From contig DAIDHS010000001.1 in the NCBI GenBank assembly GCA_027451985.1, forward strand, positions 97,932 through 161,931: 64,000 bases of DNA, read 5' to 3'. Numbering within the stretch: the stretch's first letter is position 1; every line of letters starts with the position of its first letter. This document shows positions 25,825 to 50,778 of this stretch, one piece after another. The translations under genes and the position numbers were made by a program. The stretch comes from Elusimicrobiota bacterium. Lineage in GTDB: Bacteria; Elusimicrobiota; Elusimicrobia; UBA1565; UBA9628. The notes beneath the pieces are model-generated. The model was not told the origin of the DNA and did no database searches. It saw only the letters and a program-made list of their open reading frames with translations.

Positions 25825-28800
25825 ATGCGAGGGGAATTCCGTATGGGACTAAAGGCCTGGGGAACCCTGGGCCTTTTTAATCCACCTCGGGGGGCCATTA
25901 GACTCTCTTCAGGGCAACCGCTGACCAGTATTCTATTCACATACGCGCGCATGAAAAAGGTTCTTTATAAGCTGACGGCCGTCGTGGTGACGGGAGCGCT
26001 GTTGCTCCTGACTCCGGGCATTTCCTGCTATCAAGTTCTCGCGCAGGATGTCAGCGCCGAGAGCGAGCAGAGCCAGACTCCGGTCAACATGAACTTGGGC
26101 GGGCAACTGGAAACTGTCCCGCTTGAGCAGATGGCGGTTAATCCCGCCGCAGGCGGCCTTTACCAGCTTCCCGACATTCACGTCCCGCCGTCCGAAACCC
26201 TTCCGGTTGGCGCTTCAGCAGTAAAATCCGCGGCTCAATCCGTTTCCGCGTCGGCACAGGCCGCTTCCATTCGGGCGCAATCGGTGCCCGCTGTGGAGGG
26301 TGCGCAAACCGCCGCGGCGGCTCTGCCTGAGACGCCCGCTGCCGCGGCCCTCTCTAATGGCGCCGCGTCCGTTACTCAAGGGCGCGTCGGGACCAGACAG
26401 AGATATTCCCGCGCCGCGGCTTTGTCCGCCGCTCAGGATGGGAGGCAGGCAGTTCGCCTCGGGTCTTTGGGCTGGCTTCGGAGCACCGCCGGCAAGGTGC
26501 GTAGCTGGATTAAACCCGGCGCTTCGGCCGCGAACCTCAAATTTGAGTCCAACAAGTCTTTCGACGCGGCCTACGGGAAATCGGCGGCCGTTCCGTCTGC
26601 AGGAAAATCGGAATCTTTGAGACCCGGCCGCAAGGGGCGAATCGCAAGAACCCTGGGACTTGCCGGGGCCATCGCCGTGCCCGCTGCCGCGGCCGCCATT
26701 CCGCTGCCGGCGAAGGCTGCAGCCGTCGTACACGCCGCGGCCCATTCCGGCCTCATTCATAGCGTCGGGCTGACGTTCCACGCGATTTTGACGGCCATTG
26801 GCCCCGCCGGCATCCATGCCATTTACCTCAGTATGAATGTCTTGGCCGCCGGGTTGGCCTTGCCCGAAGTCCTGCGGACGTTCCGACGCGGCAGCGCGCA
26901 TCAGGTTCCCATGGGCGAGTTGACCATGGCCGTGGTCGGCTCCGCCATCTTCGGACTCATCATCGGCCCGATGAAAGGCTATTGGGGCTGGGCCGCGCAG
27001 AATAACTATGGCGGCTTGTCCATGCTGGCCGTTCTTCCCATCGGCTGGATTTTAGGCCGCGGGGGCGTCAAAATTTTCGGCAAGCGCTTCTGGGGTCCCA
27101 TCCCGGAGCCGCAAAAAACGGAGAATCCCTCCGCGGAAAAACCGGGGCTGCTCAGGCGCATATGGAACGGCTTCAAAGATCCCGCGGTTTTGAGAACCAT
27201 CGCGGCGGCGGCGCTCATCGGAGTTGCGGCCGTTGGGTTCACCCAATTGGCCGCCGCCGTTGGCCCGGCAATTTTCCCGCCGCTCTTGAATTTCGTCGCT
27301 TCCTTGTTCCCGACTACGGCTTCGGGCATGGGTCTTTTGACGGCAGCGGTGCTTTCGGTCCCCGGCTACATCGCGCTCAAGTGGCTGCGCGGGCTTTTGA
27401 AGAGCCCGGTGTCATGGAAAAAGAAGGCGCTGCTGGGACTGCCGCTTCTGGCCGCTTTCCCGGCGATGGCCTTCTGGCTTTGGCCGATGGCCAGCGCCGG
27501 GGCCTTGCCCATGACGGCGGACAAGCTCGTTTCACTCCTGAGCGGCTTGGGCGGGGGGCTCTTCGTCTTCTTGTTCGCTCCCGAGGTCATCCGGGCGTTG
27601 ATTGTGGGTGAGGATTCCTCCAAGCACTTCAACTGGCGAACGTCGCTTATTTTCTCGGTGGCAAGCTTGGGATTCCTGATTTATTGGGGCAACCAGTATT
27701 TCGTCAACCCCGCGTCGATGGGCGTGGCCATGTCCAACATGATCCAAAACGCCATCGGGGGGCTCTTCTCGACCATCAGCTTCTTGCTGGCTTGGAAGCA
27801 CAGAAACCATAAGGTGGCGTCGGCTGCGGAGGAGAACGGTAATGCCGCCCGCGTCGCTGCGGCCGGGGAGGCCGAAAAAATCTCAAATCCCGGACAGGCG
27901 CCTCCGGATCGCTCGCCGCCCGGAGAAAGTCCGGGCGCGCCTAAAACCGAGGGCGAAAACCTCTCGCCCCACGTTTACGAAAACATCTTCGGTTTTAGAG
28001 GAATCAAGGGCCGTTCCTACGCATCCGCCGACAGCAAACTCCAGCCTCTCACCTCTCGCTCCACATCATCCCAGATCGTCGATCGAATTTCCTTTCAATT
28101 TAATATCTCTCGTGACAAAGTATTACTTATAGCATCTCGGCAAGGGATTTCGGAGGCGGCTCCGGCTGCCAGGTGGTTGGCGGTCTACGAGCGGCTCCAG
28201 AAGTCCAACTACGAGCGGTTCAAGGAGTTGGATCACGCCAAGAACGCCGGCCATGGTCTTTTTGGCGAGGCGATCCGGAAAGCCTGGGCTCGGCTGCGGG
28301 GCAAGGCGGCGCCGGACACGGCAGGGTTCCGCAGACTCGCCAACAAGACCTATGCGCCCGGCGCCAAGGGAGTGCTCCAGCGCGCGGCCGGAGTCCATCG
28401 CCTCGTAATCGGCTTCTGGATCGGCTTTGTCTACGAGTGTTTCGACTCCTTCATCCTGGGCTACTTCCGGCAGGCGATAAGCTTCCATTTCCGCCACCGG
28501 AACGAGGACTTCCTAGGCATCGCCGCTGGGCGACAAGACGAACAGGCTGGCGCCTTGTCCGAAAACGCCCTGGCCGCCGCCATCGCCGGCGTCCAGGGCC
28601 GGGGCTTGACCGCGATGGAGCGTTTCAACGCGACGGCCGTGGGGCACGCCGTGTCCGGGGCGGTCATCCGGCCGTTCGTCCACCCCCTGCTGACGTTCCT
28701 GCGCCGCCGTTTAGTCATGGCTCTCCTAAGCGCCGTCGCCATGGGGTTTTTGGGCGCCGCCGCGCCAGCCATGCCGTTTCTGTCCATTTCAGTTTTGACC

Positions 28801-31800
28801 GTTCCGTTTTTAGGGCCGCTCATTTTGCACGCGTCGCATTTCTTCTTGTTCTCGGTTGCCTCGATTCCTGGGGTAGGCCATTTCTTGCTTCCCGTCGTGA
28901 CCAAGGCGGTCAACGCCTTACTCAAGGACTTGGTGCTGGGCCCCATGCTCAACACCTACGTGCTCTCGTTCCTGATGGCGCTCACGCGGCGCCCCGTTCG
29001 GCAGTGGTTGCCCGCGCTTAAGAGCGGTTCGTTCTGGTGGGAGAGTCTAAAGACGTACTTTGGCATGATGACCATCGGCGCCGAAATCGCCGGATGCTTG
29101 AGCTATTTCGCCGGCATCGACAGCGCCATTGACTCCCACGGCTTTTATCAGCTCATCGGCAAGCACATCCATAGCCATTTCCACCTATTCCACGCGCTGG
29201 GCTCGGCGGTGGAAAGCCCCAAGGGCCAAAGCCTCATTCCCTTCGGAGGCGCCATCACCTGGGGCAACGCCCTGCTCTACCACTTCCAAAACGCCATTCA
29301 CTTCAACATTTCCAACTGGATCGCGGTCCACCTTAATCCCGCGGCGCTGGCTCAGGGGGGAGCCCACCGCGCTTTCGAGATGGGGATTTCCAATCCCCTC
29401 CAGAGGGACTTCCAGTTCAATGCCAAGGACTACTTGGCTTCACCGAAGCAGGCTAAGGCGCGCCTCAAGCAGATGGACTCCAACGCGAGCTTCTCCGAAC
29501 TGAGAAAGGAACTGGCCGCTGCCAAAGCCCGGGAACAGGCGCTAAGCTCCGCGGAGGGCCAAGCACAGGACCAGATTCTAAAACTCAAAAAACAACGCCG
29601 GCCGATTACGCCTCAGGAAAAGGCAGAGTACCAGGCGCTATTGAAACAGCTTCAACGTCAGCGGGAAAACGTCTACGCCCAGAATAAGCTCGCGGAAATG
29701 CGCGACTTGAAGGGGCGCAACCCGAAGAGCGACCTTCTCCTGAAATTAACGGCGCTGAAAAAGCAATACGCCGGCCGGCTCAACCCCAAGCCGACGGACA
29801 AGACGGACTACTGGCACGATCTTGGAGTCAAGGAGTCGCAATACGCATCGATGGCCGCCCGGCTCTCGCAGATTGTCCAACCGGCCGGTGGGAATCCGCC
29901 GGACCCAAATGGCGCGGCGCGTTCTTCGGCAGCCAGCGGGGCCGCGTTGGCGGCTGTCAGTGCCGATGCCAGCAAAGACCTTGACGCCATTAAAAGTTCG
30001 ATTCAAAAAATAAACACCAAGCGGGAGGCTTTAAAGGGCGAACTTCTGCGCAAACAGGCCCTTGAGAAGCTCATGGACGCGGAAGCCCGCCTGCGCCAAA
30101 TCGCGCTGGACCAGCGCCGGGACGGCAAGGCGATGCAGGGTTTTCATCAGAGCCTCTCGCAGTTGGACTCGGTCATGGGACTGGCGCTGTCCCAGAACGA
30201 GCTCAACGCCGCCTTGAAGGCCATCAACCAGATGCAGACGCTCATCGGCAACAAGGACGCGACCATCAACCAATCCATCAGCCAAGATCAGGCCAACCTC
30301 CAACAGATTCAAAATCTGCTTAATCAGGAGCAGCAACAGTGGCAGCAGCAGGTCACCCAGCAGGTCAATTCGGACAACCAGGCGCAGAGTGACATGAAGT
30401 CGACCCAGGGAGAAGTCGTCAGCGTCATCTCGTCAGTCCAGACGTTCAGCCAGAGCGAGAAGAACCTCATCGCGAACATCAACACTACGGACGGTGGCGC
30501 CAGCGGCAACGCGCTGACTGAGTACGCCCGCCGCCTTGCGCTCATCCAAAACGGAACCATCGCGCAGTGGGAAAATTCGGGCGGCAATCCCAACGTGACC
30601 TTCACGATGAGCCAGCTAAACGGCTACCTCCAGCAGATTTCCGCGGGCATTCAAGAGGCCCAGAACGGCCTGCAGACGCTTGAGAAGGCTCCGCAAAATT
30701 TCGCGGAAACGGCCATTCTGGAGGTACCAGGGCCGGCGGTCAATGTGCCGCCTAATCCAAGTAAGGCGGATATTCTAAACATCTTGTCCCAGCGCCAAAC
30801 GTATTGGCAGAACGAGCTCAATAGCTACGAGAGCCTGCAGACCACCATCCGGGAAATGGGCGATCCGAACAACCACGCCATGACGCAGAACGTGTTCGGC
30901 GATTCGGAGCCGCAGTCCCTGCCGGTTTGGAAGAGCCAGGAGCAGGGTGTCCTGACCCAGGATCAGACCCAGATCGGCAAGGATACCCAGCAGATGGATC
31001 AAATGGCCGCCGCCGTCAACGCGGCGTTCGGATCCCATCTTCCCATGCTTTCCGGCCAGTCGCTGACCCAACTGCAGAGCGAGGTGCAGAACTACGCGAA
31101 CGATTTGACCGCCCTCAAGATGCCCTCCGGGACGGATCCCAAAACCGTGGAAGCCAAGATGAACTTGATCAACTTGGCATATCTGGTTTCGGACTTGGGC
31201 AACCAGGTCATCAACGCGAGCGTCGCTCAGCAGACGATCACCACCATCGACGGCGCCATGTCCACGACGCTGCCCCAGGCGGCGCAGGGCATCGATGCCA
31301 TCGTGCAGATGGTCAAGAACATCCTGGCGGACGAGCAGATGGACGTGGCCTACGTCAACGGCGACCAGGAGACGCAGCAGCAGGTTTTTACCCGGAAGGA
31401 AAACCTGCTGCAGAACGAGATTCTGCCGTCCCTGCAGCAAGCGCAGAGCATGCTGCAAAATGATCTAATTCCCTTCCAGCAGCAGACGATCGCGTCCTAT
31501 CAGCAAAGCAACTCCACCACGGGCTATTACTACCTATACACGACCAAGCAGTCGTTCCTGACGCAAATCGAGAGCCTCTATAACACCACCATGCCGTGGT
31601 CCATCGAGACGTTCGGGGGGGTGTCGGGAGACAAGGCGGGTTCCCTGCAGGACGTCGCCGCGTGGAAGACCCAGCTGCAGGGCTATTTGACGGGCTACAA
31701 GGACAGCAGCGGCGTCGAGCAGCAGGGCCTTGAGCAGGCTCTACAGGAAGCCAACGACCGCATGACCACGAACTTCAAGGGCAATTCCCAGGACCCTGCG

Positions 31801-34800
31801 ACGGAAACGGTCTACGGCGAGGTGCAGCCCTACAGTCTGCCTGACAAAATCACAAAGTATACGGCGGAAATGCAGACCCGCGTTAGTCAGCTCAATCAGA
31901 ACGACGTGAAGATCAATCAGATGCTGGAGGAGATTAAGACCCTTTCCAACGGACAATACGACTTGACGCAGTATCTGTTGCCGACCGGAGTGGGGACAGA
32001 TGCCGCGAGCGTCGCCAAGATTCAGGCCCTGATCAACGCGAACACCCTGCCTAGCCTGGGATCGGCCCTGCAGCAGGTCGCCAACGAAGCGCTGGCGGCT
32101 TCCGGGAGCACCAACATCAACATCGGCGGCGGCAACGGCAGCGTGCTCTCCGGCACCCAGCCGTCTCCCACCATTTCGAACGACCAGAAAATCGCCCTTT
32201 TGGCATCGCAAATCGGCCCCTTGCTGGCGCCGGCGAGTCAGAGCGTCACCAACCCGTCGGCGGGGGACACCACGGACGCGGTCGCGCGCTACATGTACTC
32301 GAACAGCGTCATCCAGGCCGCCCAGAACGGCGAGCAGTTCATCAATTCCACCGTCTATCCCTTCGTCCACCAGGGCATCCAGACCATCAACGACGCCGTC
32401 AACGACGCGAACAACCGCATCGCCTACATCAACTCGGGCGGAACGAGCATGACTCCGCAGCAGATCTACGATCAGGAGCTGAAGATTTTCAACGAACTCG
32501 GAGGCTTCCTGGATCAGGCGCAGAATTTCTTCGGGCAAAAGAGTAGCTTTGATTCGCAGTCCTTCAGCACGATTTCGAGCATCCTCAACTACTACCAGTC
32601 CTTGGAGACCATCGACCAGTCCGGCATCACCGCGGCCCAAGGCCAGTTGCAGGCGGACCAGACCATTTCCCAGGCGCTGCAGGCGGAGCAGACCAAGCTC
32701 CAGGGCCAGCTGAGTGAAATAAACGGCTGGCTGTCTCAGCTTAACGATCCGCACGACAGCGCCCTGCGGCGCACCAGCGACGCGATTTCCGCGATCATGG
32801 ACCAGACCCGGCAGGTTTTGGAGCAGAACATCAAATTCAAGGACCTGCAGAGCCAGCTGCGCGATTCCGATCAAATCATCCAATCCCAAACGCGCGAGCT
32901 TGAGGTTAAGCAGAAGAATCTGCAGTCTCTGATCGACGATTATGAAAAGAAGGCCGAGGGTCAGCCCTTGCCGCCGGCCGTTGCCCAGCAGGTGAAGGAC
33001 CTTAAGTTCGGGCAGGGTATGTGGGAGCAGGGCGGCCCCGACGGCAGCTATGTGGTCGTTCCTAAGTCCAAGTACCCTTCCTTCGTGCGGGCTCTCCTTA
33101 AAACTATCGCGCCGCAGGATTCCAACGACGCCATCGAGCAGATCGCCCAAAACCTCATCAGCAACCCCCAGAGCCTGATGAGTCTCATCCCAGGATCCCA
33201 AGTCATGAACTTCGGGAACTCCGCTGACGGCTTTTATATGGTCTACCAGACCAACTTGTCCATTCCAAACGGCGTTTCCACGGGCAATTCGGTCACTCTG
33301 GGCAACGTCGCCAGGATTTTCGGCAATAACATAAGCGTCGAGGGTTACCAGTTCGAAAGTCCGCCGGAAAGCCCATCGGGCGGCGCCAGCAACGCGCCGT
33401 GGGGGGACAAGGGCGTGGGCGTGCAGGTCGAGTCTCTGCAGGGCAAGAATTGGGTCAACTACCTGAACATCGACCTGCACCGCTTTGGCTTGAGCGTCCC
33501 GAACAACGACACCATGGCCGCGCAGGTCCAGCAGGACCGCATTCTTGTTTTCGACGACTATGCCATGATGGCCCTCAACGGCAAGCTCTACATCGGCTTG
33601 GCAGGTTTCGGAGACGGAGCGATTCATGACCCCAGCGGCAATCCCTACTACTATGGCGGCAATTTCAAGACCGCGATTCAAATGACTCCCGTCATTAGCT
33701 TGACGGCCCAGCAACAGGAGCTCTTTGCCAACGATCCGAGAAGCTTTCTTGAGAACGTGAACCTTGATTTTACGGGCAACGACCCCAGCTTGAATCAGAA
33801 CTTCGCCATCGCCGCGCAGGGAGACAGTAAGTCCTTTTCGCGCACCAAGCTGGGCACCAGCATAGACGTGGCCCAATGGCTCGCAGGCAATAAACAGAAG
33901 AGTTCGGACGCCTTTACGCTTGACCTGTATTATGACCGAATCCATGGGACGGACGACATCTCTCAGAATGCTTTGGGGGCCTCCGTCATAAAAGGATTTA
34001 CTCTCTACCGCGATAACGGCAAACCCTGGCTCAACATCACCAACAACGCTAGCGGCGAAGCCGGGCAGAAATACGACATGGCCTCGGATGACCTGACCAT
34101 CAACCTGCCCAACGGAATCGTCTTGAGCGGCAACGGACAGATTATGGGTTCCGAACGCGCCTACTACGGGCAGATTGCGAAAAAAATGACCGATACCAGC
34201 CAAATTCAGCTGGGCTACGGTTCGCCGGTCATTGGGATGAACAACCGGCTCAATCTGACGTTCGACTCGTCCTTCAGCCTGCGGCAGATTTGGGAAACGG
34301 TCAGCCGGCAGGCGGCCGATGATCTTCAGGGCGGGCAGGCTCTTAAGCCTTTCAAGAGATCCCTGGCGGATTTCCTCTCGGCCAACTCGGGCGACACGGC
34401 CGCCGCCGAACTTAAAAAAGTCTTCGATCATTACGCGGCCCAGGAACTCGTCGATTCGGACGCCATCGGAGATTTGTCCAAGCAAATCGGGGATTTGCAG
34501 AAAGCCGGTGCTTTCATGGATAACACGAAGGTGCAGTCCGTGTTGGGATTTACCAGCGGCGCCGTGTCCAATGACCCGACGGAGTTGGCCGTCGGCGGCG
34601 GGCCTGTGGTCGGCACGGAAACGACGATGACCATCTCCCGGACGCAAAAGGCGCTCATCGCGGACAAGACGGCGACCTTAATCCGGGACGGTCTGCAGCT
34701 TCAAGACACCATGGTGGGCGCCGCGCAGAAGTTTCAGGGCGCGGTCAAAGACGTGATTGAGGCTGAGGGCTCGCTGCGCATCGCGCAGGCCGCCGAGGCC

Positions 34801-37800
34801 CGCCTGCCCGCCGGCCCGCAGCGCGACGAGGCCCTGGTTCAAGCCGATCGGGCCCAGGCGCGACTCAATGAGGCGATCATCCGCTTCAACGTCATGACCG
34901 GCCGGCCTCCTGGCGCCCAATTTCCCTTGCAGGACCTCAGCGGCGCGACGCTTGAGGACTTGATGGCGCAACTAAAGCAGACCATCACCATGCCGGCTGG
35001 GCTGGCCAGGGTCCTGCACCAGGTCGATCCGCAGAAACTGCAGGCTCGCGTGGGCTCCAATCCCTTCAACATCCTGGATAAAATTCCGTGGGTCGAACGG
35101 ATGACTTTGGGTGTCGGCACCCAGCTTCAAGACAGCATGTCGAGCCAGCTTTTGGGCGCCGGCGGATCGGTCACGCTTCCCATCTACGACCCGACCTCTA
35201 AGGCGAAGAACCATGCCTATCGGCTTGAGAACAAGGCGGCCTTGGCGGAAATTTCCCAGGTCTATGAGGATCACGCGCGAGCTGTGGAAAAGGAGCTTTT
35301 TGAAAGCGGCTTGGCTGGCGACCAAAGCAAAACTCTGGGACCGGAACTGACGCAGGCTTCCAATAATTTAAATGAAGTGTCTGCGGCGTACCGCAACGGG
35401 CTGGCCGGGCCGGCGGAGCTTCAAAAGGCGTACCAGACCTGGATGTGGTATTACGACGCCTACAACGAAGCTCTGGCGACGAAGACTTTGGCCGACGCCT
35501 CCGCGTCTTTAGCGGGGAATTTCTTGTCGCCCGGCCAAGGCTGGAAGGGCGCGGCGGGTCTCATGGGGCCGGATTCTCCGCCGCTGGATTTGACCTCCCT
35601 GCCCCAGGCCGCGTCTTTGGCGGCCGCCCATTCCGGGTCTCTGGAGGAAATGGCGGCACGGGAGCAGGCGGCCCAGGCCATGACTCAGGCTGCAAGCCAC
35701 CGGATTCAGAAGGCCTCGCTCGACTTGTCTGTGGGAGGCAATCTCGTGGCCAGCGGAACGGGGTGGATCCCCAGCATCGGCATGACGGGTTTCCCGGTCA
35801 TGCCGATTTTCAACTTCAAGTTCGAACCTTCGGACTTGCGGGACTTGGACCAAGCCCAACACAAGGCCGAATCCAAATATTATGCCGCGATCAAGGGCAA
35901 GTTGCAGGCGGACTTGGCCTTTGAAATTTATCAAAACGTTCTTACTTACGAGACGTCGATTTCGGAATTGACGCAGTTAAACGACGTCGTCATCCCTCAG
36001 TTCGCAAAGGAGGCGCAGACCGCTTCCGCCGGTCCTGCCGAGGCCGCGGCCCGGCATCGGCTGGACCAAGCGAAGCTTGAGCGCGACGGCGTTTTGTACG
36101 CCGGAGCCCAGGCGCTGGCTTCGGTTAACATGCTTTTGGGTCGGAGCCCTTCCTCCCCTCTGCGTATCGACATTTCCCCGAAGACGGCGACCTTCGATCT
36201 CCAGAAACAATATAAAGCAGAGTCACCCGCGCAGATTCAAGATAAGGTCCTCGGGGCTCAGGTTCGGATCGCACGGACGGCCGAGACCATCACGGACCGG
36301 GGAGAGAAAATCCAGGAGTTGAGCACCGAGCCTGTGTCTCTCGTTGTGCGAGCCGCCGGGCGCTTGCTCCGGACGCTTAGCGGCAACGGCTTGGGTGACC
36401 CCGATTTAAAGCAACAGGCGTTGCTCGAAGACCTCAAAGCCCAGCGGGCGCTGGAGTCTTTCCGGAAAAACGTGCCGGTTGAGCGGGCTCAATTGGAGCA
36501 GCGGCTCGCGGTCGTGACAGACGCCATCTCGAGAACTTCTCCAGAAGGCTCATCCGCCGTCCAATTTATCGATCTCCAGTCTCAAAAAATGCTTCTGCAG
36601 GCCCAGTTGGCGAGTTTGCAAGGCATCGGCACGGAGGCTCCGATAGGCCAAGCCGCTCCTGGATCCGGCGCGCCGTCCGCGATGCCCGATAATTTCGCGG
36701 ACTTGCGCAACCGCCTCGAAACGGCGGAGCAGGGCGTGACGGCGCCGCCAGACGTTCAAGGTGCCGGCTTGGCCAATCCTCAAGTATCCAAGGCGCAACC
36801 CGAGTCCTTTACCCGCTTTTACTATTTGCGCCAGACTTTAGGCAAAACCCAGGTCCACCAGGGCTACTTGGAAAGCTGGCTCGAGGCCAGGCTGCGTTTC
36901 AGCGGCACGTCGCCCAGAGAGCTTCTCCGCCTTGAAAAGCTCCGGGAAGACGAGGAGGATCAGGACTATATGGCCGCGCAGTCCGCGGCCGCAGCCAAAG
37001 GCGACATCCTGGCGGCCGACTTCGCGGCCAAAGTGCAGACTTTCCGCTACATGAAAAAACACATCGGCGCCAAAGACCAGCGCCAAACGGACGAGGCGCT
37101 CACAAGCATACGCCACGCGCTCAAATCCGACGCGGTGCAGATCGCCGCGCTTCTGGGCCTGCCATTGGATGCGGCGGGTAAAGCGGGCGCGACGGACGAA
37201 ACGATGAAGGCATTGATGGCGCTGGTGCCCGAACAAACGGAAAATGCCCAGGCTGTCGGCCAAGATCTTATCAATCGATTGAACGATCAGAGCTTTGCGC
37301 ACATCGAGCAGATGCTGTTCAACGGCCAGGCCCCGATTCCCGGGACTAATTCCGCCGCGGCTTTGAGCGACATACGGACCGACATTCTGCTTAAGCACAT
37401 GGCCTCCTCAAACATCACTCCGGTCGCGGCTTTCGGCGTCTTTCGCGGCCAGCCGGTTGAGGGACTTTTCCTCAAGACCCCTGATCCGACGACCATCGAG
37501 GCGGGGCTTGAGAGCGTGCTTTCCAAGGACATGCTGGCCAAACTCAAGGCTAGCGGAGAACTGCAGGACCTCACCCTCCATTTGAGCCAGCTCATGCAGG
37601 CCGTGCATGACGACGCGCAGACGTTGGAGAGCCAGCGGCGGCTCATTCAGTCCGCCCAGGCGCAGTACGAGAATCTGCTCGCCCTGGGAACCCCGCAGGC
37701 CTCCGCGGAACTGCAGGCCGCCCAGCACGAACTTATCCAGGCTTGGCTCGACTTCAACAACCAGGCGGCGAAATCTAAGTCCGATGTCGTCGAGCTCTCC

Positions 37801-40800
37801 GGTGAAATCCAAGCGTTGGGTTATTCTCCAAGCCAAGAGGGGACTCTCCCTTCCTCCGACATAAGTCTCGAAGCGCAGCCCGCGCGCGAACTTTCTCGGG
37901 GCATGATGGCGTACTGGGCCGAGCGAACGGCGGCTTCAGATTTCGCGGCTCAAGAGCAGAATATCTTGGACGGATTTGGCCCATTGCTTTCTCAGGATTT
38001 CAAGGAGCGATTGGCCTCGGACATTCAATCTTGGAGCCAAGCCCGCGCCGAGGCTCGGCGTCTGCGCGCGGGCGATCTCCCAGCCGTTAAGAAAGACGCG
38101 CTTTTGGTTCAAAACGATGCGACGGGCAAGCAGGAGGCCGTGGAACAGGACTTGGCCGCCTTGGTCGACGCTTTGTCCTCGGCCGGGAACTCTTCCGCGG
38201 CGGCGTCCGGCGACCTGAAGCAGTTGCTGGTCTTCTTGCAGAATGATATGGATGTCCAAGCCAACGCCACGAAGGATCAGCGCCTAAAATACAACAAGAG
38301 CGTCGAGGAACTGCGCAAGACGTATTGGGACTCGCTGCGCCCCGGCTTGCCGCCCAAGGTCGCCGGAGCGTTCACGCGGCTCGAAGACCTGCAGCATAGT
38401 CTGCGCGGAGATTGGCAGAGCCTGCTCGATAGCTATATGGAGAACGGCTCCGGCACGGAGCCGTTCATCATGAAGGACGTTCAGCTGGATGCCTATCTTA
38501 AGGACCAGCACGCCTTCAACCAGGAGATCGTGGCTCTGCTGAAGTCCGACGAAGTGCGGAAGGATCCGGCCGCTCTGGAAGGCCTTGAGTCGCTCTACGA
38601 CGTGCGCACGGCCCTGGACCAGGAGATTGCGGTCGCCCGCTACGGCCGCGGCATGGCGGCCTTGGACGCGCTCATTGAGCTCGATCAGGTGCGTCTTGAC
38701 GCGGCGCGCGGGGAGAACAAGGGGCCGGATGCGATTGCGGCGGCGGTTCAAAGCCTGCAAACCCTCGAAGACATGAAGCAACGCTGGCTCAAAGGGCAGG
38801 ACTCGCTCCAGCCCGTCTACGCCGTGGTCCCCATTCAGAGCGACGGCCAGGACATGAACGTGGTGACGGAATGGCTGACCCAGAAGGAGATCGACGCCCG
38901 CCAAGCGGACGGGCAAGATGAGCCGCTTAAGCATGGCGGGACCATCACCGAGGAGGGCGGCAAGTACTATCTTAACTCCGCGGGGGGAGGGCGATTCCTT
39001 ATTCGCTCAGGAGTGGACCAACTCCAGAGTGGCGTGGACGCCGCGCAAGCAGCGCTGGATCAGAACCAGAGCGTCATCGATTTGGGCTTTAAAGCCGATT
39101 TCGTGTCCGATAAGTTTATCGATGGCAGGCCTGTGAGCCAGTACTCGGTGCAACAAGTCTTCGGCTTGGTGCCGCCTCCCAAGGCTGACGTCGGGTCCCC
39201 GCCGCCTGAACAGCCCCTGTTCCTGTTCTATCAAGTTTCTGGCGCGCCGAGCCTGGGAACGGGGGAAAACGCCGACGCCTTCAGTCGCCTCTTGCCCGAG
39301 GCCATCGCTTTGACGGAAAGCCCGAAGGATTACGCGGTTTACGTCTACACTGGGCCGGAGAAGCTTTCTTATGACAATTTCCCGACGCTCCAGAGCCTTA
39401 AGGATTCCCCGGAATACAAGGACGTGCAGAAGCTGACCCTGACGCCGACGGGTGCCTCCGACGCCTCGATGCTGGCCCGCGGCAGGGGCCTGATCTCGCT
39501 GCGCAAAGGGTGGATCGCGCTCAAGCTCAATAGCTATGGCTTTGCGCTGGACGGCCAGAATCTCGTGAAGGTGTACCAGAGCCGCGATGAGTTCGACGCC
39601 TCGCAAGAGCGGCTGGAGAACGCCAAAGACAATCTTGCCGAGGCCCAGGCGGCTCTTAAACGAGACAGGGCGATCAAAGATGCGGAAAAAAATAAATTCG
39701 ATTCCATTGAGGCCGAGTACAATACTCAACTCGCGAAGTATCAAAAGGCGCTGAACTCCCGGAAACAGCAGTTGGAGAAAATGGCCTTAGGCGATTTGTC
39801 CCAAAAGCCCGGCGAACCCGACGCTTTTTATAAAGTCCGCGTGGAAAGCAAGGTTGACTTCCTCATCAAGGGCGACGCGAAATACCGGGCCATCATGAAA
39901 AATCTTGCTCCCTACGCAAAGAAATTCGATGCTGAGAAGCTCAAGAACGACGCGGCCCAGGCCCAGGCTGATGACGACCAGAAAGCCGTGGACAAGGCCA
40001 GTGCTGTTTTGGCCGACGCGCAGAAATGGAGCTTATACAGGACGGACAATCTCTCGCTGGAATTGGCCGGAGATGGGACGCTCGTGGCCGTCAAGGCGTC
40101 CCCGGCTTACGGTGGAAATTTGCTGAATGAAACTTTGGCCGACGAAGGTCAGAGCGTCCCCGCGAACCCCGTTCTTGTTAATGGGGCCCTTTACGCCGTC
40201 GTTCTAGATGGCGCAGGCCGCGTGGTCAAGACATTCCAAACTTCGGATGCGGTGGAGAAGGCGGCCAAGACTTGGACGATGGAAAGCGTGAGTATGAACC
40301 CGAATGGCGCCGCAGTGGAAAGCGGCGGACGAATCATGACTAACTATCGTCTGGATTATTATGAGGACCCAGCCACCAAGCTGCCAGTTGAGCTCAGCGA
40401 GCGCTACGTGCGCGATCGGGTCGAGCACGACAAACGCAGCCTCTTCTACCGCGAACATTGGGGCTTGATGCCGCAGAATTGGTTCAGCTTGGTCATGAAC
40501 GTGCCGGATCAGATCGTCGGGACTCCCATCGAACTAGCCGGACGGGATCCGAACCAGCAGCATTATCTGGGGCGCGTCAATATGAACCACAGCGAGGGCG
40601 GGGAGACGCAGCATCACGGATTTTTCCGCAACGCCCTGGGTTTCGTGGACGTGCTCGACCTGTTGCCGGACCCGGTGAAGATTTACAACGACCCCAGCCA
40701 GTTCCCCGCGCAATCCCGAATTAGTTCCCCAGTCATGCCGGGCCAGGACATCTACTCGAAGTCCCTGCGCAATCCTAAAGACGGAGAGAACGTCCATTTC

Positions 40801-41658
40801 GGCGCCAAGGCCGTGGCCCAGGGCTTGCAGTACTCTCTTGAGGATTTAACCGACGCCCAGCAACAGACGCTGAGCTATTTCCGGGGCGGCTACGAAGATT
40901 TGATCATCAGCCGCATGCGAGGGCGTGATGGGACGTATGAGGAATCCCAAAGGACGGCCCGCAGCGGCGGCGGTGCCATTGCGAGCAAGCTCGAGGATCA
41001 GGGCACCCGAGACGAGGCTTACGATCCGCTTGCGGCGGCGGACGCCCGTTCTGCCATGCATGGAGTTACGGAGACGGCCAGCCCTGATAATGTCTTGACC
41101 GAACGAGTGGAACGGCGCGTGAAAATTCAGCTTGGGGCCAAGCAGTATAATCAGGCGGCTGATGGGTTTAAGGCCTATTCCAAGGATATAAATGGTGCGA
41201 TTAGCAAAGAGAAAAAAGAGCGAGAGGGGCTTGCAGGATCTTTAAGCGCTGAGCAGGCGGCTTTAGAAAATGCTTTAGCCGCCAGGAATGACGCGCAATC
41301 GAGCCTGGATAAGACATGGTCCAAGTACCACGCGCTGGAATTGCGCATGGGGGCGGAAAAAGCTTTGGAGCAGGGAATTGTCTTGTGGCAGAAGCGCGCT
41401 AATGATTTGGCGGCGCAGTTCAAGACGGCGCAGGCTCAAGCCGACACCATGAGGAACCAGCTTCAGCAAGCCGCTGGCCTCGCCGCCGCGAGCCGCACCT
41501 CGTCCCGGCAGGCCGCCGCGACTTCGTTCCCGTCTCCGGCGCAGCCAAAGACGCCGATTTGGCCGTGGATCTTTTTCTTGGGCGGACTCGTCAGCCTTTT
41601 GGCGGCGGCGTGGGAAGCACTGCGCCATAGAATATTACGCGCCAAGCGTATTGACTAA
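25825..41658 (+). CDS. giant 5277-aa protein: N-terminal polytopic membrane domain, ~4000-aa Gln-rich helical region with a central beta-rich island, and a C-terminal TM anchor; alternative start at 25951 places the signal peptide at the N-terminus
   Basis: One uninterrupted frame of 15.8 kb. From M43 (nt 25951) the sequence is MKKVLYKLTAVVVTGALLLLTPGISCYQVLAQD. More than 15 hydrophobic helices lie in aa ~270-1150. The following ~4 kb of protein is Q/A/L/N-rich helical low complexity (QEQQQWQQQVTQQVNSDNQAQ ...). A beta-strand-like block sits at nt ~33200-34300 (GNSVTLGNVARIFGNNISVEGYQFE...TLDLYYDRIHG...TFDSSFSLRQIW). The C-terminus PIWPWIFFLGGLVSLLAAAWEALRHRILRAKRID is a tail anchor. Confidence 0.7.
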   Translation: MRGEFRMGLKAWGTLGLFNPPRGAIRLSSGQPLTSILFTYARMKKVLYKLTAVVVTGALLLLTPGISCYQVLAQDVSAESEQSQTPVNMNLGGQLETVPLEQMAVNPAAGGLYQLPDIHVPPSETLPVGASAVKSAAQSVSASAQAASIRAQSVPAVEGAQTAAAALPETPAAAALSNGAASVTQGRVGTRQRYSRAAALSAAQDGRQAVRLGSLGWLRSTAGKVRSWIKPGASAANLKFESNKSFDAAYGKSAAVPSAGKSESLRPGRKGRIARTLGLAGAIAVPAAAAAIPLPAKAAAVVHAAAHSGLIHSVGLTFHAILTAIGPAGIHAIYLSMNVLAAGLALPEVLRTFRRGSAHQVPMGELTMAVVGSAIFGLIIGPMKGYWGWAAQNNYGGLSMLAVLPIGWILGRGGVKIFGKRFWGPIPEPQKTENPSAEKPGLLRRIWNGFKDPAVLRTIAAAALIGVAAVGFTQLAAAVGPAIFPPLLNFVASLFPTTASGMGLLTAAVLSVPGYIALKWLRGLLKSPVSWKKKALLGLPLLAAFPAMAFWLWPMASAGALPMTADKLVSLLSGLGGGLFVFLFAPEVIRALIVGEDSSKHFNWRTSLIFSVASLGFLIYWGNQYFVNPASMGVAMSNMIQNAIGGLFSTISFLLAWKHRNHKVASAAEENGNAARVAAAGEAEKISNPGQAPPDRSPPGESPGAPKTEGENLSPHVYENIFGFRGIKGRSYASADSKLQPLTSRSTSSQIVDRISFQFNISRDKVLLIASRQGISEAAPAARWLAVYERLQKSNYERFKELDHAKNAGHGLFGEAIRKAWARLRGKAAPDTAGFRRLANKTYAPGAKGVLQRAAGVHRLVIGFWIGFVYECFDSFILGYFRQAISFHFRHRNEDFLGIAAGRQDEQAGALSENALAAAIAGVQGRGLTAMERFNATAVGHAVSGAVIRPFVHPLLTFLRRRLVMALLSAVAMGFLGAAAPAMPFLSISVLTVPFLGPLILHASHFFLFSVASIPGVGHFLLPVVTKAVNALLKDLVLGPMLNTYVLSFLMALTRRPVRQWLPALKSGSFWWESLKTYFGMMTIGAEIAGCLSYFAGIDSAIDSHGFYQLIGKHIHSHFHLFHALGSAVESPKGQSLIPFGGAITWGNALLYHFQNAIHFNISNWIAVHLNPAALAQGGAHRAFEMGISNPLQRDFQFNAKDYLASPKQAKARLKQMDSNASFSELRKELAAAKAREQALSSAEGQAQDQILKLKKQRRPITPQEKAEYQALLKQLQRQRENVYAQNKLAEMRDLKGRNPKSDLLLKLTALKKQYAGRLNPKPTDKTDYWHDLGVKESQYASMAARLSQIVQPAGGNPPDPNGAARSSAASGAALAAVSADASKDLDAIKSSIQKINTKREALKGELLRKQALEKLMDAEARLRQIALDQRRDGKAMQGFHQSLSQLDSVMGLALSQNELNAALKAINQMQTLIGNKDATINQSISQDQANLQQIQNLLNQEQQQWQQQVTQQVNSDNQAQSDMKSTQGEVVSVISSVQTFSQSEKNLIANINTTDGGASGNALTEYARRLALIQNGTIAQWENSGGNPNVTFTMSQLNGYLQQISAGIQEAQNGLQTLEKAPQNFAETAILEVPGPAVNVPPNPSKADILNILSQRQTYWQNELNSYESLQTTIREMGDPNNHAMTQNVFGDSEPQSLPVWKSQEQGVLTQDQTQIGKDTQQMDQMAAAVNAAFGSHLPMLSGQSLTQLQSEVQNYANDLTALKMPSGTDPKTVEAKMNLINLAYLVSDLGNQVINASVAQQTITTIDGAMSTTLPQAAQGIDAIVQMVKNILADEQMDVAYVNGDQETQQQVFTRKENLLQNEILPSLQQAQSMLQNDLIPFQQQTIASYQQSNSTTGYYYLYTTKQSFLTQIESLYNTTMPWSIETFGGVSGDKAGSLQDVAAWKTQLQGYLTGYKDSSGVEQQGLEQALQEANDRMTTNFKGNSQDPATETVYGEVQPYSLPDKITKYTAEMQTRVSQLNQNDVKINQMLEEIKTLSNGQYDLTQYLLPTGVGTDAASVAKIQALINANTLPSLGSALQQVANEALAASGSTNINIGGGNGSVLSGTQPSPTISNDQKIALLASQIGPLLAPASQSVTNPSAGDTTDAVARYMYSNSVIQAAQNGEQFINSTVYPFVHQGIQTINDAVNDANNRIAYINSGGTSMTPQQIYDQELKIFNELGGFLDQAQNFFGQKSSFDSQSFSTISSILNYYQSLETIDQSGITAAQGQLQADQTISQALQAEQTKLQGQLSEINGWLSQLNDPHDSALRRTSDAISAIMDQTRQVLEQNIKFKDLQSQLRDSDQIIQSQTRELEVKQKNLQSLIDDYEKKAEGQPLPPAVAQQVKDLKFGQGMWEQGGPDGSYVVVPKSKYPSFVRALLKTIAPQDSNDAIEQIAQNLISNPQSLMSLIPGSQVMNFGNSADGFYMVYQTNLSIPNGVSTGNSVTLGNVARIFGNNISVEGYQFESPPESPSGGASNAPWGDKGVGVQVESLQGKNWVNYLNIDLHRFGLSVPNNDTMAAQVQQDRILVFDDYAMMALNGKLYIGLAGFGDGAIHDPSGNPYYYGGNFKTAIQMTPVISLTAQQQELFANDPRSFLENVNLDFTGNDPSLNQNFAIAAQGDSKSFSRTKLGTSIDVAQWLAGNKQKSSDAFTLDLYYDRIHGTDDISQNALGASVIKGFTLYRDNGKPWLNITNNASGEAGQKYDMASDDLTINLPNGIVLSGNGQIMGSERAYYGQIAKKMTDTSQIQLGYGSPVIGMNNRLNLTFDSSFSLRQIWETVSRQAADDLQGGQALKPFKRSLADFLSANSGDTAAAELKKVFDHYAAQELVDSDAIGDLSKQIGDLQKAGAFMDNTKVQSVLGFTSGAVSNDPTELAVGGGPVVGTETTMTISRTQKALIADKTATLIRDGLQLQDTMVGAAQKFQGAVKDVIEAEGSLRIAQAAEARLPAGPQRDEALVQADRAQARLNEAIIRFNVMTGRPPGAQFPLQDLSGATLEDLMAQLKQTITMPAGLARVLHQVDPQKLQARVGSNPFNILDKIPWVERMTLGVGTQLQDSMSSQLLGAGGSVTLPIYDPTSKAKNHAYRLENKAALAEISQVYEDHARAVEKELFESGLAGDQSKTLGPELTQASNNLNEVSAAYRNGLAGPAELQKAYQTWMWYYDAYNEALATKTLADASASLAGNFLSPGQGWKGAAGLMGPDSPPLDLTSLPQAASLAAAHSGSLEEMAAREQAAQAMTQAASHRIQKASLDLSVGGNLVASGTGWIPSIGMTGFPVMPIFNFKFEPSDLRDLDQAQHKAESKYYAAIKGKLQADLAFEIYQNVLTYETSISELTQLNDVVIPQFAKEAQTASAGPAEAAARHRLDQAKLERDGVLYAGAQALASVNMLLGRSPSSPLRIDISPKTATFDLQKQYKAESPAQIQDKVLGAQVRIARTAETITDRGEKIQELSTEPVSLVVRAAGRLLRTLSGNGLGDPDLKQQALLEDLKAQRALESFRKNVPVERAQLEQRLAVVTDAISRTSPEGSSAVQFIDLQSQKMLLQAQLASLQGIGTEAPIGQAAPGSGAPSAMPDNFADLRNRLETAEQGVTAPPDVQGAGLANPQVSKAQPESFTRFYYLRQTLGKTQVHQGYLESWLEARLRFSGTSPRELLRLEKLREDEEDQDYMAAQSAAAAKGDILAADFAAKVQTFRYMKKHIGAKDQRQTDEALTSIRHALKSDAVQIAALLGLPLDAAGKAGATDETMKALMALVPEQTENAQAVGQDLINRLNDQSFAHIEQMLFNGQAPIPGTNSAAALSDIRTDILLKHMASSNITPVAAFGVFRGQPVEGLFLKTPDPTTIEAGLESVLSKDMLAKLKASGELQDLTLHLSQLMQAVHDDAQTLESQRRLIQSAQAQYENLLALGTPQASAELQAAQHELIQAWLDFNNQAAKSKSDVVELSGEIQALGYSPSQEGTLPSSDISLEAQPARELSRGMMAYWAERTAASDFAAQEQNILDGFGPLLSQDFKERLASDIQSWSQARAEARRLRAGDLPAVKKDALLVQNDATGKQEAVEQDLAALVDALSSAGNSSAAASGDLKQLLVFLQNDMDVQANATKDQRLKYNKSVEELRKTYWDSLRPGLPPKVAGAFTRLEDLQHSLRGDWQSLLDSYMENGSGTEPFIMKDVQLDAYLKDQHAFNQEIVALLKSDEVRKDPAALEGLESLYDVRTALDQEIAVARYGRGMAALDALIELDQVRLDAARGENKGPDAIAAAVQSLQTLEDMKQRWLKGQDSLQPVYAVVPIQSDGQDMNVVTEWLTQKEIDARQADGQDEPLKHGGTITEEGGKYYLNSAGGGRFLIRSGVDQLQSGVDAAQAALDQNQSVIDLGFKADFVSDKFIDGRPVSQYSVQQVFGLVPPPKADVGSPPPEQPLFLFYQVSGAPSLGTGENADAFSRLLPEAIALTESPKDYAVYVYTGPEKLSYDNFPTLQSLKDSPEYKDVQKLTLTPTGASDASMLARGRGLISLRKGWIALKLNSYGFALDGQNLVKVYQSRDEFDASQERLENAKDNLAEAQAALKRDRAIKDAEKNKFDSIEAEYNTQLAKYQKALNSRKQQLEKMALGDLSQKPGEPDAFYKVRVESKVDFLIKGDAKYRAIMKNLAPYAKKFDAEKLKNDAAQAQADDDQKAVDKASAVLADAQKWSLYRTDNLSLELAGDGTLVAVKASPAYGGNLLNETLADEGQSVPANPVLVNGALYAVVLDGAGRVVKTFQTSDAVEKAAKTWTMESVSMNPNGAAVESGGRIMTNYRLDYYEDPATKLPVELSERYVRDRVEHDKRSLFYREHWGLMPQNWFSLVMNVPDQIVGTPIELAGRDPNQQHYLGRVNMNHSEGGETQHHGFFRNALGFVDVLDLLPDPVKIYNDPSQFPAQSRISSPVMPGQDIYSKSLRNPKDGENVHFGAKAVAQGLQYSLEDLTDAQQQTLSYFRGGYEDLIISRMRGRDGTYEESQRTARSGGGAIASKLEDQGTRDEAYDPLAAADARSAMHGVTETASPDNVLTERVERRVKIQLGAKQYNQAADGFKAYSKDINGAISKEKKEREGLAGSLSAEQAALENALAARNDAQSSLDKTWSKYHALELRMGAEKALEQGIVLWQKRANDLAAQFKTAQAQADTMRNQLQQAAGLAAASRTSSRQAAATSFPSPAQPKTPIWPWIFFLGGLVSLLAAAWEALRHRILRAKRID

Positions 41659-43866: not shown

Positions 43867-45272
43867 CGGCCCTGCGGCGCGGCGCAGGGCGTACGGCGCA
43901 GGGCGCACTTGTCTGCTGTTTGCTATTGTGGCTGGGCGTCGCGGCATCCGGCAGGGAAATCTTTCAGAAAGTCGTCGTGCGCCCGGGAGACACACTGTGG
44001 GGCATCGCGCAGACGTATCTCAAGAATCCCCAAAAATGGAATGAGATCCTTAAATATAACACGCTGCCTTCCCAAGATCCCACGGCGGCTCTTCCTGGAA
44101 TGGTTCTGCGCGTGCCGGTCAATCTGATCAAAGAGAGCCTGCAGGCAGCCTACCTCGTGCAGAAGGAGAACACCGTTTATTTTAGGCGCCGCGACACTGC
44201 CGGCTGGAAATCGGCGTCGCTTCATCTGAACTTGTATCAAGGAGATTCCCTGCGCACGCTGGATAACGCGAGCGCGCGCGTGAAGTTCCTGAGCGGAGGG
44301 AACTTGGCCATGAACGCCAATTCAATGGCGATCATCCAACCGCCCAAAGCCGGCTACGACGTCAACCTAGAGCGGGGCAGCGTTTTCGTTGGGCACGCCA
44401 CGGTGGTCACAGCTTCGGCGCGCATCGAGCCAAAGACCAAGGATACGCAGTACATGGCCAAGGTCGGCGAGGACTTGAGCACCATCGTCGAGGTTTATCG
44501 CGGCCGCGCCGCGGTTTCGGCCCAAGGCCAGACCGTGGACGTCAACGCCGGCATGGCCAGCGTGGTTCCCAAGGGTTTGGCGCCCAATCTGCCTCAAAAA
44601 ATAGCCGATTTTTCCGCTCTTCAGGACCAAGCCGCGGCGTTGAACGGGATTTCCAGATCCGTCAAAGTCGCGGGGGCGTTCCCGTCGTCTCTGGGCGAAG
44701 GCGCCCTGCCGGGAAAAGCGGCGCTCCGGGACGCGTCTTCCGGCATTGCGCGGGAAGTGTCGTCACTGGAAATCGGCGTGCCCGTTTCCGGTTATCGCGT
44801 CCAAGCCTCGCGTTCGCCCGCTTTCGATAGGCTGGTGTTCAATAGGGTTTTTAACTCAGATGAGAAATTCGATCCGTCTTCGGCGAACTTGCCTCCGGGT
44901 ATTTATTGGTGGCGCATCGCCCTCATCGACTTGCTCGGCACGCAGGAAGATTTTTCATCGCCAAAGCGCTACGTCATCGGCGGGGGAGAGTCGTCCCAGC
45001 AGATCGATCCGTCCGCTCTGATGCTTTTGATCCATCCGCAAGACGGCGAAAATGTTTTTTCACCGGAATACCGCGTTTCCGGACGCCTCAAATCGTCTCA
45101 GGCGTCCGTTTCGGTGAACGGCCGCCCGGCGCGCCAGGATGAGGAAGGCAATTTTTTCGCCGATATCCGCCTGAAGGCAGGCGACAACAAGGTAGCCGTG
45201 ACGGTCCAGGATGCTTCCGGGCAGAGCGCTACGGTCGTTAGAACCGTGCGCTACTCGCCGGGCGGCGAGTAA
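43863..45272 (+). CDS. LysM-domain protein with FecR-like domain
   Basis: 469 aa. Signal/TM ALVCCLLLWLGVAASG. LysM KVVVRPGDTLWGIAQTYLKNPQKWNEILKYN. The following region (SARVKFLSGGNLAMNANSMAIIQPP...ERGSVFVGHAT) resembles a FecR sensor domain. ATGA overlap with the kinase gene stop. Confidence 0.65.
   Translation: MTALRRGAGRTAQGALVCCLLLWLGVAASGREIFQKVVVRPGDTLWGIAQTYLKNPQKWNEILKYNTLPSQDPTAALPGMVLRVPVNLIKESLQAAYLVQKENTVYFRRRDTAGWKSASLHLNLYQGDSLRTLDNASARVKFLSGGNLAMNANSMAIIQPPKAGYDVNLERGSVFVGHATVVTASARIEPKTKDTQYMAKVGEDLSTIVEVYRGRAAVSAQGQTVDVNAGMASVVPKGLAPNLPQKIADFSALQDQAAALNGISRSVKVAGAFPSSLGEGALPGKAALRDASSGIAREVSSLEIGVPVSGYRVQASRSPAFDRLVFNRVFNSDEKFDPSSANLPPGIYWWRIALIDLLGTQEDFSSPKRYVIGGGESSQQIDPSALMLLIHPQDGENVFSPEYRVSGRLKSSQASVSVNGRPARQDEEGNFFADIRLKAGDNKVAVTVQDASGQSATVVRTVRYSPGGE

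Positions 45273-50774: not shown

Positions 50775-50778
<4 letters not shown>
48934..50778 (+). CDS. glxK: glycerate kinase domain (aa 1-~375) fused in frame to a signal-peptide-like segment and a ~220-aa TPR-like domain
   Basis: N-terminus MSVRILAAPNAFKGSLSALEAARAF...ISDGGDGL is the classical glycerate-kinase-family start. After ...AKSWAAKAAAMAARGLAPVFALCFLAAAARASQPP the frame continues into TPR-like helices (DAHFWLGVAMGRLGQ...YVALAQAYESDGQKAKAVDVLQQVLKV). Confidence 0.7.

Follow-up and report, generated by a model that had tools for sequence, protein, structure and literature searches.

A conserved giant protein of Elusimicrobiota with a predicted outer-membrane-type β-barrel between long helical regions

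Results

A single 15.8-kb gene and its neighbours

The window, a stretch of 64,000 nucleotides from an Elusimicrobiota bacterium (contig DAIDHS010000001.1), carries on its forward strand a single intact open reading frame (ORF) of 5277 codons (P0001, window positions 25825-41658), which lies between a gene for a protein with a helicase region (P0002) and a histidine kinase gene. The features described below are listed here in window coordinates.

18354..25736, +: P0002, 2460 aa, with a signal peptide, one transmembrane (TM) segment (aa 887-909), a ResIII/DEAD-like helicase region and a Walker A motif at aa ~1677
25825..41658, +: full ORF of P0001 (5277 codons), stop codon at 41656-41658
25951..26043, +: likely start Met43 and Sec-type signal peptide (aa 43-73), from the matching homolog start and hydropathy
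26650..28458, +: clade-specific N-terminal extension (aa ~276-878) with several hydrophobic, putatively transmembrane stretches, shared only with P0004-P0006
28708..28986, +: hydrophobic Pro/Gly-rich block (aa 962-1054), conserved in all homologs, with invariant prolines
29572..33174, +: Gln-rich α-helical region (aa ~1250-2450), predicted from composition and an AlphaFold (AF2) model to form long amphipathic helices in hairpins or bundles
33211..34278, +: most conserved module (aa ~2463-2818), a predicted closed outer-membrane-type β-barrel of 16-18 strands (alignment, AF2, Foldseek, VIA, Atlas)
34282..41544, +: post-barrel α-helical region (aa ~2820-5240); the OEP segment of distant homologs maps to aa ~3240-3380
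41554..41655, +: C-terminal TM helix (aa 5244-5266) and basic tail (~11 aa), conserved across the family
41695..43866, +: histidine kinase (dCache-HAMP-PAS-HisKA-HATPase), downstream of P0001

The first-pass annotation of this DNA had read a 15.8-kb gene here, which was borne out by the ORF check and by a coding-type pattern of GC by codon position. Because the homolog P0004 begins at the same residue, and with the start context read as well, Met43 (nt 25951) was taken as the likely start, giving a protein of 5235 aa. Breakage of the frame by assembly error, which had been raised as a concern, was also checked. The region was free of indels and joints in contigs from two independent public runs (of the same mine-drainage study), and homologs as long as P0001 occur in many other genomes, which rules out an assembly artefact as the origin of the ORF. 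P0001 is a genuine conserved giant protein of ~5,200 aa. A long antisense ORF (31741-34647, −) was rejected as a gene, being a shadow of the P0001 frame. BLAST self-comparison found no internal repeats in P0001, and Pfam and NCBIfam gave no significant match to the full protein, searched as two halves.

An undescribed protein family limited to Elusimicrobiota

P0001 belongs to an undescribed giant-protein family that is limited to Elusimicrobiota. The members are conserved, 4,300-5,700 aa long and without a Pfam domain, and were present in ~31 of the 301 sampled Elusimicrobiota genomes, mostly within the window's own taxonomic family. They share an N-terminal Sec signal peptide, one hydrophobic block and a C-terminal TM followed by a basic tail. 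Beyond the family, the barrel module is common to other giant proteins of Elusimicrobiota and of Omnitrophota. In those of Elusimicrobiota, a Pfam OEP (TolC-like) segment directly follows the module; OEP was matched in the distant homologs P0079 and P0087, and one of the distant homologs is annotated as a 'TolC family protein'. In P0001 itself, Pfam OEP was not detectable even at E ≤ 10. Furthermore, the Omnitrophota protein P0091 has the barrel module fused to SecA_DEAD, P-loop_SecA, SecA_PP_bind and M23 peptidase domains. No standalone barrel-module proteins were found, the short profile matches being fragments without signal peptides.

Membrane segments toward the two ends

The signal-like N-terminal segment that had been noticed earlier is present at aa 43-73 and is kept in family members as the same Sec signal peptide, with an Ala-x-Ala-type cleavage site. 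With a Kyte-Doolittle 19-aa mean of ≥1.6 as the criterion, ~10 hydrophobic stretches were counted in aa 45-1054, several of them Ala/Pro-rich and possibly not transmembrane, in place of the more than 15 hydrophobic helices previously counted over the first ~1150 aa. Beyond P0001, the majority of them (aa ~270-880) are shared by the three closest homologs alone, P0004-P0006; the polytopic N-terminus proposed before is limited to this small clade. A search for short proteins homologous to the N-terminal extension alone returned none.

The block at aa 962-1054 (~90 aa) probably forms 2-3 membrane helices. The Arg clusters that flank it fit an odd helix count, from which it follows that the barrel would be cytoplasmic; this contradicts the positive-inside tail at the C-terminus, unless the block is not transmembrane. 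An Atlas language-model search with aa 930-1250 gave no usable match.

At the other end, the hydrophobic segment (aa 5244-5266) and its strongly basic tail are present as annotated and kept family-wide. Tail-anchored proteins have a single C-terminal TM and no N-terminal signal peptide, and they are inserted post-translationally. P0001 shows the single C-terminal TM of the 'classic tail anchor' that it had been called, but it does not belong to that class because it has a signal peptide; judged from these sequence features, its C-terminal TM is therefore most likely a stop-transfer anchor of a Sec-exported protein, with the C-terminus in the cytoplasm. NCBIfam models gave no match to C-terminal sorting motifs (PEP-CTERM, GlyGly-CTERM, MYXO-CTERM etc.) in the last 100 aa of eight family members. 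This anchor is not universal, since several distant barrel-module homologs lack the C-terminal TM. As for the idea of a protein pinned at both ends, the C-terminal pin holds, while the N-terminal one rests on the conserved block at aa 962-1054 as a putative anchor.

Helical regions on both sides of the β-module

The region between the membrane segments had been described as ~4000 aa of Gln-rich coiled coil, hundreds of nm in length. A fibrous coiled-coil protein has a long continuous heptad repeat without Pro or Gly breaks. In P0001, however, the Gln-rich composition (9-16% Gln) is confined to aa ~1250-2450, and Pro (3-7%) and Gly (5-9%) are spread along the whole protein. As modelled by AF2 (aa 1401-2400, mean pLDDT 81), this stretch consists of discrete helices of 30-122 residues with short loops between them, and the heptad-like hydrophobic periodicity seen in some of these helices is local only. 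On these grounds of composition, model and heptad pattern, a continuous fibrous coiled coil was rejected; as modelled, the Gln-rich region is a helical hairpin/bundle architecture in which long helices are folded back against one another, not a single rod. Foldseek against the PDB assigned no fold to the helical region (best TMq 0.08, to MukB/SMC arms), and the Atlas structural search returned nothing above TM 0.15. Helices of 60-120 residues (up to ~18 nm), if formed as in the model, would be compatible with spanning a periplasm of ~20-30 nm.

A predicted outer-membrane-type barrel in the centre

The ~370-aa G/N/T/Y-rich β island noted earlier (nt ~33200-34300, aa ~2460-2826) is present, has an all-β model and shows the strongest conservation within the family: the alignment of the module has a mean identity of 66%, and aa 2501-2600 show 58% identity to distant homologs. 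Its AF2 model consists of ~19 long strand segments with long and short loops in alternation, at a mean pLDDT of 57.7. Foldseek ranked outer-membrane porins and BamA highest for this model (E from 1e-6 to 1e-4), with TM-scores of only 0.25-0.37, and VIA gave Z 14.9 to OccK/OprD and AlgE (18-strand barrels; Z 14-15, rmsd ~4.7 Å over ~270 residues). The Foldseek and VIA matches also include the autotransporter EstA and TpsB/Omp85 barrels, and Atlas places the module next to the barrels of TonB-dependent receptors and ushers. The structural searches thus point to barrels of 16-18 strands, against ~19 segments in the model, and the strand number given for the module is approximate. A profile of the module searched against PDB sequences gave no significant match, so the likeness to known barrels is at the level of the fold only.

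Outer-membrane barrels usually end their last strand in an aromatic residue; in each of the 24 aligned sequences, the last strand of the module likewise closes with a conserved aromatic, F or in some homologs Y. The two faces of the strands differ in hydrophobicity (0.64 vs 0.26), a contrast that fits a membrane barrel and a soluble β-sheet or sandwich alike, and β-rich segments of non-membrane proteins, too, can come out of AF2 as barrel-like sheets. P0001 has the Sec signal peptide that an outer-membrane barrel needs, and the same genome encodes a BamA (Omp85). Elusimicrobia have two membranes, with an LPS outer membrane (PMC3133647). Overall, the suggestion that the β island could be an outer-membrane barrel gains support from the AF2 model and from the Foldseek, VIA and Atlas comparisons.

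Genes next to P0001

The upstream neighbour P0002 had been regarded as a SecA-like motor protein. Its Pfam/NCBIfam matches are ResIII and type I restriction enzyme R subunit-like only; SecA domains (SecA_DEAD, SecA_PP_bind, P-loop_SecA) were absent by both Pfam and NCBIfam, and BLAST did not match P0002 to the SecA part of P0091. P0002 was thus rejected as a SecA translocase motor and reads as a generic ResIII/DEAD-type helicase. Its homologs occur in the closest relatives only, and a P0002 relative lies upstream of one family member elsewhere. The translocation-channel analogy that had been built on this neighbour loses its SecA part at the locus and is favoured indirectly by P0091, in which the barrel module is joined to SecA domains.

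The downstream histidine kinase recurs close to genes of the family in 2 out of 4 further contexts.

Discussion

Comparison with known systems

The predicted barrel is like those of outer-membrane porins and channels (OprD/Occ family, AlgE, Wzi, OmpG, TonB-dependent receptor barrels) in its closed arrangement of ~16-18 antiparallel strands, its alternating long loops and short turns and its terminal aromatic residue. However, porins have no sequence similarity to the P0001 module and are standalone proteins of 300-800 aa, whereas the barrel predicted for P0001 lies inside a chain of ~5200 aa, flanked by two large helical regions and by two predicted inner-membrane anchors. The OEP-like helical segment after the barrel in distant homologs recalls TolC/OEP (PF02321), that is, a barrel with periplasmic helices; TolC, in contrast, is a separate protein and a trimer whose 12-strand barrel takes 4 strands from each protomer, while P0001 has no detectable OEP and is predicted to be monomeric with 16-18 strands. 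With TAM (an outer-membrane TamA and a TamB that spans the periplasm from its inner-membrane anchor) and the TonB/TolA bridges, we see a functional analogy only, in an inner-membrane-anchored periplasmic part that reaches an outer-membrane barrel, and claim no membership; TAM consists of two proteins, a TamB with a β-taco groove and a TamA with an Omp85 barrel, whereas P0001 would combine everything in a single chain whose periplasmic part is α-helical. The giant SecA-DEAD proteins of Omnitrophota and the PVC group (bioRxiv 10.1101/2023.11.21.568195; 10.64898/2026.06.07.730766) are likewise giant, bear signal peptides or TM segments and lack Pfam domains, but P0001 has no SecA, peptidase, dockerin, glycosyl hydrolase or glycosyltransferase domains, and the barrel module alone is held in common.

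A possible trans-envelope architecture

Our preferred reading, to which we assign a probability of roughly 0.35, is that a single polypeptide is anchored in the inner membrane, holds a barrel in the outer membrane and extends helical arms across the periplasm. P0001 would be exported via Sec through its N-terminal signal peptide, and the C-terminal helix would act as a stop-transfer signal at the inner membrane, so that the basic tail stays cytoplasmic. Toward the N-terminal end, the conserved hydrophobic block of ~90 aa around aa 1000 would probably serve as an extra inner-membrane anchor. The central module would fold as a β-barrel of 16-18 strands and be put into the outer membrane by the cell's own BAM, and the helical regions on either side (~1400 and ~2400 aa) would sit in the periplasm and bridge both membranes, so that P0001 may staple or connect them as one polypeptide. 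The analysis shows the C-terminal anchor, the signal peptide, the conservation and a barrel-like prediction; outer-membrane insertion, the span of two membranes and a conduit role are what we infer for this protein. With a barrel pore and helical periplasmic arms, as in TolC, a conduit would be the probable function and a mechanical tether a possible one, and the earlier idea of a conduit or tether is still a plausible reading. The fuller version of this proposal is more tentative: a ~5200-aa trans-envelope conduit with a C-terminal and a probable N-terminal inner-membrane anchor, an outer-membrane barrel and ~3800 aa of α-helical periplasmic arms, possibly acting as a TolC-like exit duct.

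P0001 could also be an inner-membrane-anchored giant periplasmic or surface protein whose β-module is soluble, lies outside the outer membrane and was rounded into a barrel by AlphaFold, its helical regions being extended or globular scaffolds; such a protein might, for example, attach to other cells or degrade them, a role that has been put forward for the giant proteins of Omnitrophota. We regard this reading as only slightly less probable than the preferred one. The low confidence of the barrel model and the G/N-rich composition of the module, like that of carbohydrate-binding β-sandwiches, speak for a soluble module, as does the proposal that giant exported proteins of related phyla are cell-contact or predation factors (bioRxiv 10.1101/2023.11.21.568195). 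Against it, Foldseek, VIA and Atlas each return closed outer-membrane barrels (Z ~15) and no sandwiches, and the aromatic residue at the end of the last strand is conserved.

Two further readings place the barrel in the outer membrane. It is rather improbable that P0001 is a single-chain conduit for secretion or efflux, its barrel acting as a TolC-like exit pore that is maybe powered by a partner ATPase (perhaps P0002 here, a fused SecA-like motor in Omnitrophota). The OEP segment in distant homologs, the SecA and M23 peptidase domains fused to the module in P0091 and the adjoining helicase-domain protein, with a relative upstream of a family member elsewhere, would agree with such a device; yet P0002 has no detectable SecA domain and is limited to the closest relatives, P0001 has no detectable OEP, and the trimeric 12-strand barrel of TolC differs from the predicted monomeric one. 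Still less probable is a surface adhesin of the autotransporter/intimin type, whose barrel would anchor the protein in the outer membrane and act as translocator, with one of the helical halves displayed on the surface. A barrel within a large Sec-exported protein does resemble type Va/Ve translocators, and the structural matches include EstA and TpsB/Omp85 barrels, but the C-terminal TM with its conserved basic tail implies a cytoplasmic C-terminus, the hydrophobic stretches in the N-terminal half are unsuited to a surface passenger, and the barrel lies in the middle of the protein instead of at its end.

Significance

As a rule, outer-membrane barrels are proteins in their own right, and several proteins are normally needed to connect the two membranes of Gram-negative-type cells, as in TolC-AcrA-AcrB, TamA-TamB, Lpt and TonB-ExbBD. 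If the trans-envelope reading is true, an outer-membrane barrel inside one giant, doubly inner-membrane-anchored polypeptide would be an unusual design, and it would raise the question of how BAM folds a barrel that is flanked by thousands of residues. Since the barrel module also occurs in Omnitrophota giants, one of them fused to SecA, the P0001 family may represent an unrecognised shared building block of giant proteins in poorly studied, partly predatory lineages.

A giant, intact gene of an undescribed family

The ORF encoding the giant protein P0001 (25825-41658, +) is single and intact over 5277 codons, and its codon-position GC (GC3 0.75 > GC1 0.61 > GC2 0.43) follows the pattern of a genuine coding frame. 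Because homologs begin at the position of Met43 (nt 25951), the mature product probably comprises ~5235 aa. The gene is real and misassembly is excluded, since contigs from separate assemblies of two public mine-drainage runs extend over the locus with neither indels nor joints, and proteins of 4.3-5.7 thousand aa, alignable over almost the full length of P0001, are encoded in dozens of genomes. It is single-copy in its own genome (2.4 Mb). An antisense ORF across the barrel region (31741-34647, -; 968 aa) was dismissed as a GC-frame shadow of P0001. GC skew is negative at 26001-36000 and positive again thereafter, which is probably a local base-composition effect of the gene and not a replication feature.

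Full-length P0001 had no match in Pfam or NCBIfam. A phmmer-type search returned 24 homologs, all in Elusimicrobiota MAGs; three of them, close relatives, share 59-73% identity with P0001 and the remainder 32-39%. The family is present in 31 of 301 sampled Elusimicrobiota genomes, concentrated in the taxonomic family of the present genome (20/26 genomes) and one sister family, with two paralogs in some genomes; in the same sample, weaker relatives occur in one further, more distant family, and two large families whose genomes are small (1.2-1.7 Mb) yielded no member. This protein family is undescribed.

A predicted outer-membrane-type barrel

The β-rich island recognized in the first-pass annotation proved to be the most conserved part of the family (aa ~2463-2818); within it, aa 2501-2600 are 58% identical to distant homologs. 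A model of this barrel module, built from 24 aligned sequences (mean identity 66%), showed ~19 long antiparallel strands, with long loops alternating with short turns, followed by helices; its confidence was modest (mean pLDDT 57.7; 70-88 in the core). The best Foldseek matches were outer-membrane porins, BamA and TpsB barrels (E 1e-6 to 1e-4), VIA-align gave Z 14.9 and an rmsd of 4.8 Å over 272 residues for OccK7, with similar values for OprD/Occ-family porins, AlgE and Wzi, and the Atlas neighbours were TonB-dependent-receptor and usher barrels. These comparisons are consistent in suggesting an outer-membrane-type barrel. One face of the strands is hydrophobic, as would also suit a soluble β-sheet, and the last strand ends in F/Y in 24/24 sequences; a terminal aromatic on the C-terminal strand is typical of outer-membrane barrels. 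BamA is encoded in the genome, and the outer membrane of Elusimicrobia contains LPS (PMC3133647). A second, more weakly matching Omp85-family gene (TamA/TpsB-like) lies outside the window (C1:71765-72400, -).

A sequence profile of the module retrieved no relative from the PDB. In a profile search of 1.8 billion representative proteins, the module was confined to giant proteins, short matches being fragments. Its Elusimicrobiota carriers have 1.9-3.8 thousand aa; one is annotated "TolC family protein", and in two a Pfam OEP (TolC-type) segment directly follows the module. BLAST transfers this position to about aa 3240-3380 of P0001, but no OEP was detectable there by Pfam, so TolC/OEP membership was rejected. 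A distant 336-aa match (P0083) joins the module end to a histidine kinase ATPase-like C-terminus, possibly reflecting gene fusion or a chimeric contig.

Helical arms and membrane segments

Long α-helical regions flank the module: a Gln-rich one (aa ~1250-2450) and another reaching to the C-terminal TM helix. A continuous coiled coil of ~4000 aa had been proposed; however, Pro (3-7%) and Gly (5-9%) are distributed throughout, and AlphaFold2 (aa 1401-2400, 24 homologs; mean pLDDT 81) gave helices of 30-122 residues separated by short loops, which rules out a fibrous coiled-coil protein. Since several of these looped helices show local heptad-like hydrophobic periodicity, they are predicted to fold back as hairpins or bundles. 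Foldseek and ESM Atlas searches found no known fold for this region.

In a 25-sequence alignment, all members carry an N-terminal Sec signal peptide. The N-terminal part of P0001 contains ~10 hydrophobic stretches, not the more than 15 first counted, and most of these lie in an extension (aa ~1-700) restricted to the close clade, for which a search found no homologs elsewhere. The family-wide core begins at ~aa 700 and includes a strongly conserved, hydrophobic, Pro/Gly-rich block of ~90 aa (aa 962-1054) that likely sits in the inner membrane. At the other end, a TM helix precedes a conserved basic tail. By the positive-inside rule, a basic tail marks the cytoplasmic side, and the C-terminus is thus most likely cytoplasmic. 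The suggested tail anchor stands as a terminal TM helix, but the signal peptide rules out a classical tail-anchored protein; the two features together indicate a Sec-exported protein with a putative C-terminal stop-transfer anchor.

Genomic neighbourhood

Genes around P0001 and upstream of family members elsewhere:
15555-18173, +, and 9955-15398, genes for 542, 363, 861 and 872 aa, no Pfam domain
18354-25736, +, P0002, directly upstream; 2460 aa, signal peptide, one TM (aa 887-909)
41695-43866, +, histidine kinase (dCache-HAMP-PAS-HisKA-HATPase), downstream
43863-45272, +, LysM and glucodextranase-B-domain protein, downstream
45274-47082, -, glucodextranase-C SLH-like domain protein
47583-48911, +, glutamate/leucine dehydrogenase
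48934-50778, +, glycerate kinase fused to TPR domain
L001:1013-1912, L002:1524-2429, L004:8701-9603, Y1_Tnp/RAYT-like transposases (other genomes)

The 872-aa protein has a signal peptide and the other three upstream products have single or paired hydrophobic segments. The kinase and LysM/glucodextranase-B pair also follows the family member of another genome (L002), and the kinase likewise lies downstream in a third genome (the P0007 context), which possibly points to a regulator of the locus. The ~300-aa transposase gene, immediately upstream of the family gene in several other genomes, is absent from the window.

Possible roles in the envelope

The observations fit together best, at a confidence of about 0.35, if P0001 is a single polypeptide that spans the envelope, perhaps as a TolC-like conduit or as a tether. 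The N-terminus would be exported, the conserved hydrophobic block would likely lie in the inner membrane, the helical arms in the periplasm, the middle would form the predicted barrel, and the C-terminal anchor would sit in the inner membrane; both barrel flanks would be periplasmic because the strand number would be even, as in any such barrel. Arg clusters flanking aa 962-1054 could indicate an odd helix number, which would conflict with this arrangement unless the block is not transmembrane. A soluble β-domain within an inner-membrane-anchored periplasmic or surface giant is only slightly less probable; the structural matches and terminal aromatic favour a barrel.

A secretion conduit powered by a partner ATPase is improbable. 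Omnitrophota giants also carry the module, and in one (P0091) it is fused with SecA_DEAD (E 3e-71), P-loop_SecA, SecA_PP_bind, M23 peptidase and LysM. Giant Omnitrophota proteins whose SecA-DEAD domains are without the SecA membrane-anchor parts have been published, with proposed self-export and prey-contact roles, in work that does not describe the Elusimicrobiota family (bioRxiv 10.1101/2023.11.21.568195). P0002 has a ResIII/DEAD-type helicase region (Walker A at aa ~1677), and in a different genome a relative of this region is encoded upstream of a family gene. Its description as a SecA-like motor is unsupported, because SecA-specific models did not match it, comparison with the SecA region of P0091 revealed no similarity, and its homologs are restricted to the two closest relatives. 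An autotransporter-like adhesin, which would likewise combine Sec export with a barrel, is less probable still, the module being central and the C-terminus carrying a putative inner-membrane anchor. On the envelope-spanning reading, P0001 would work like an outer-membrane barrel protein with fused inner-membrane anchors.
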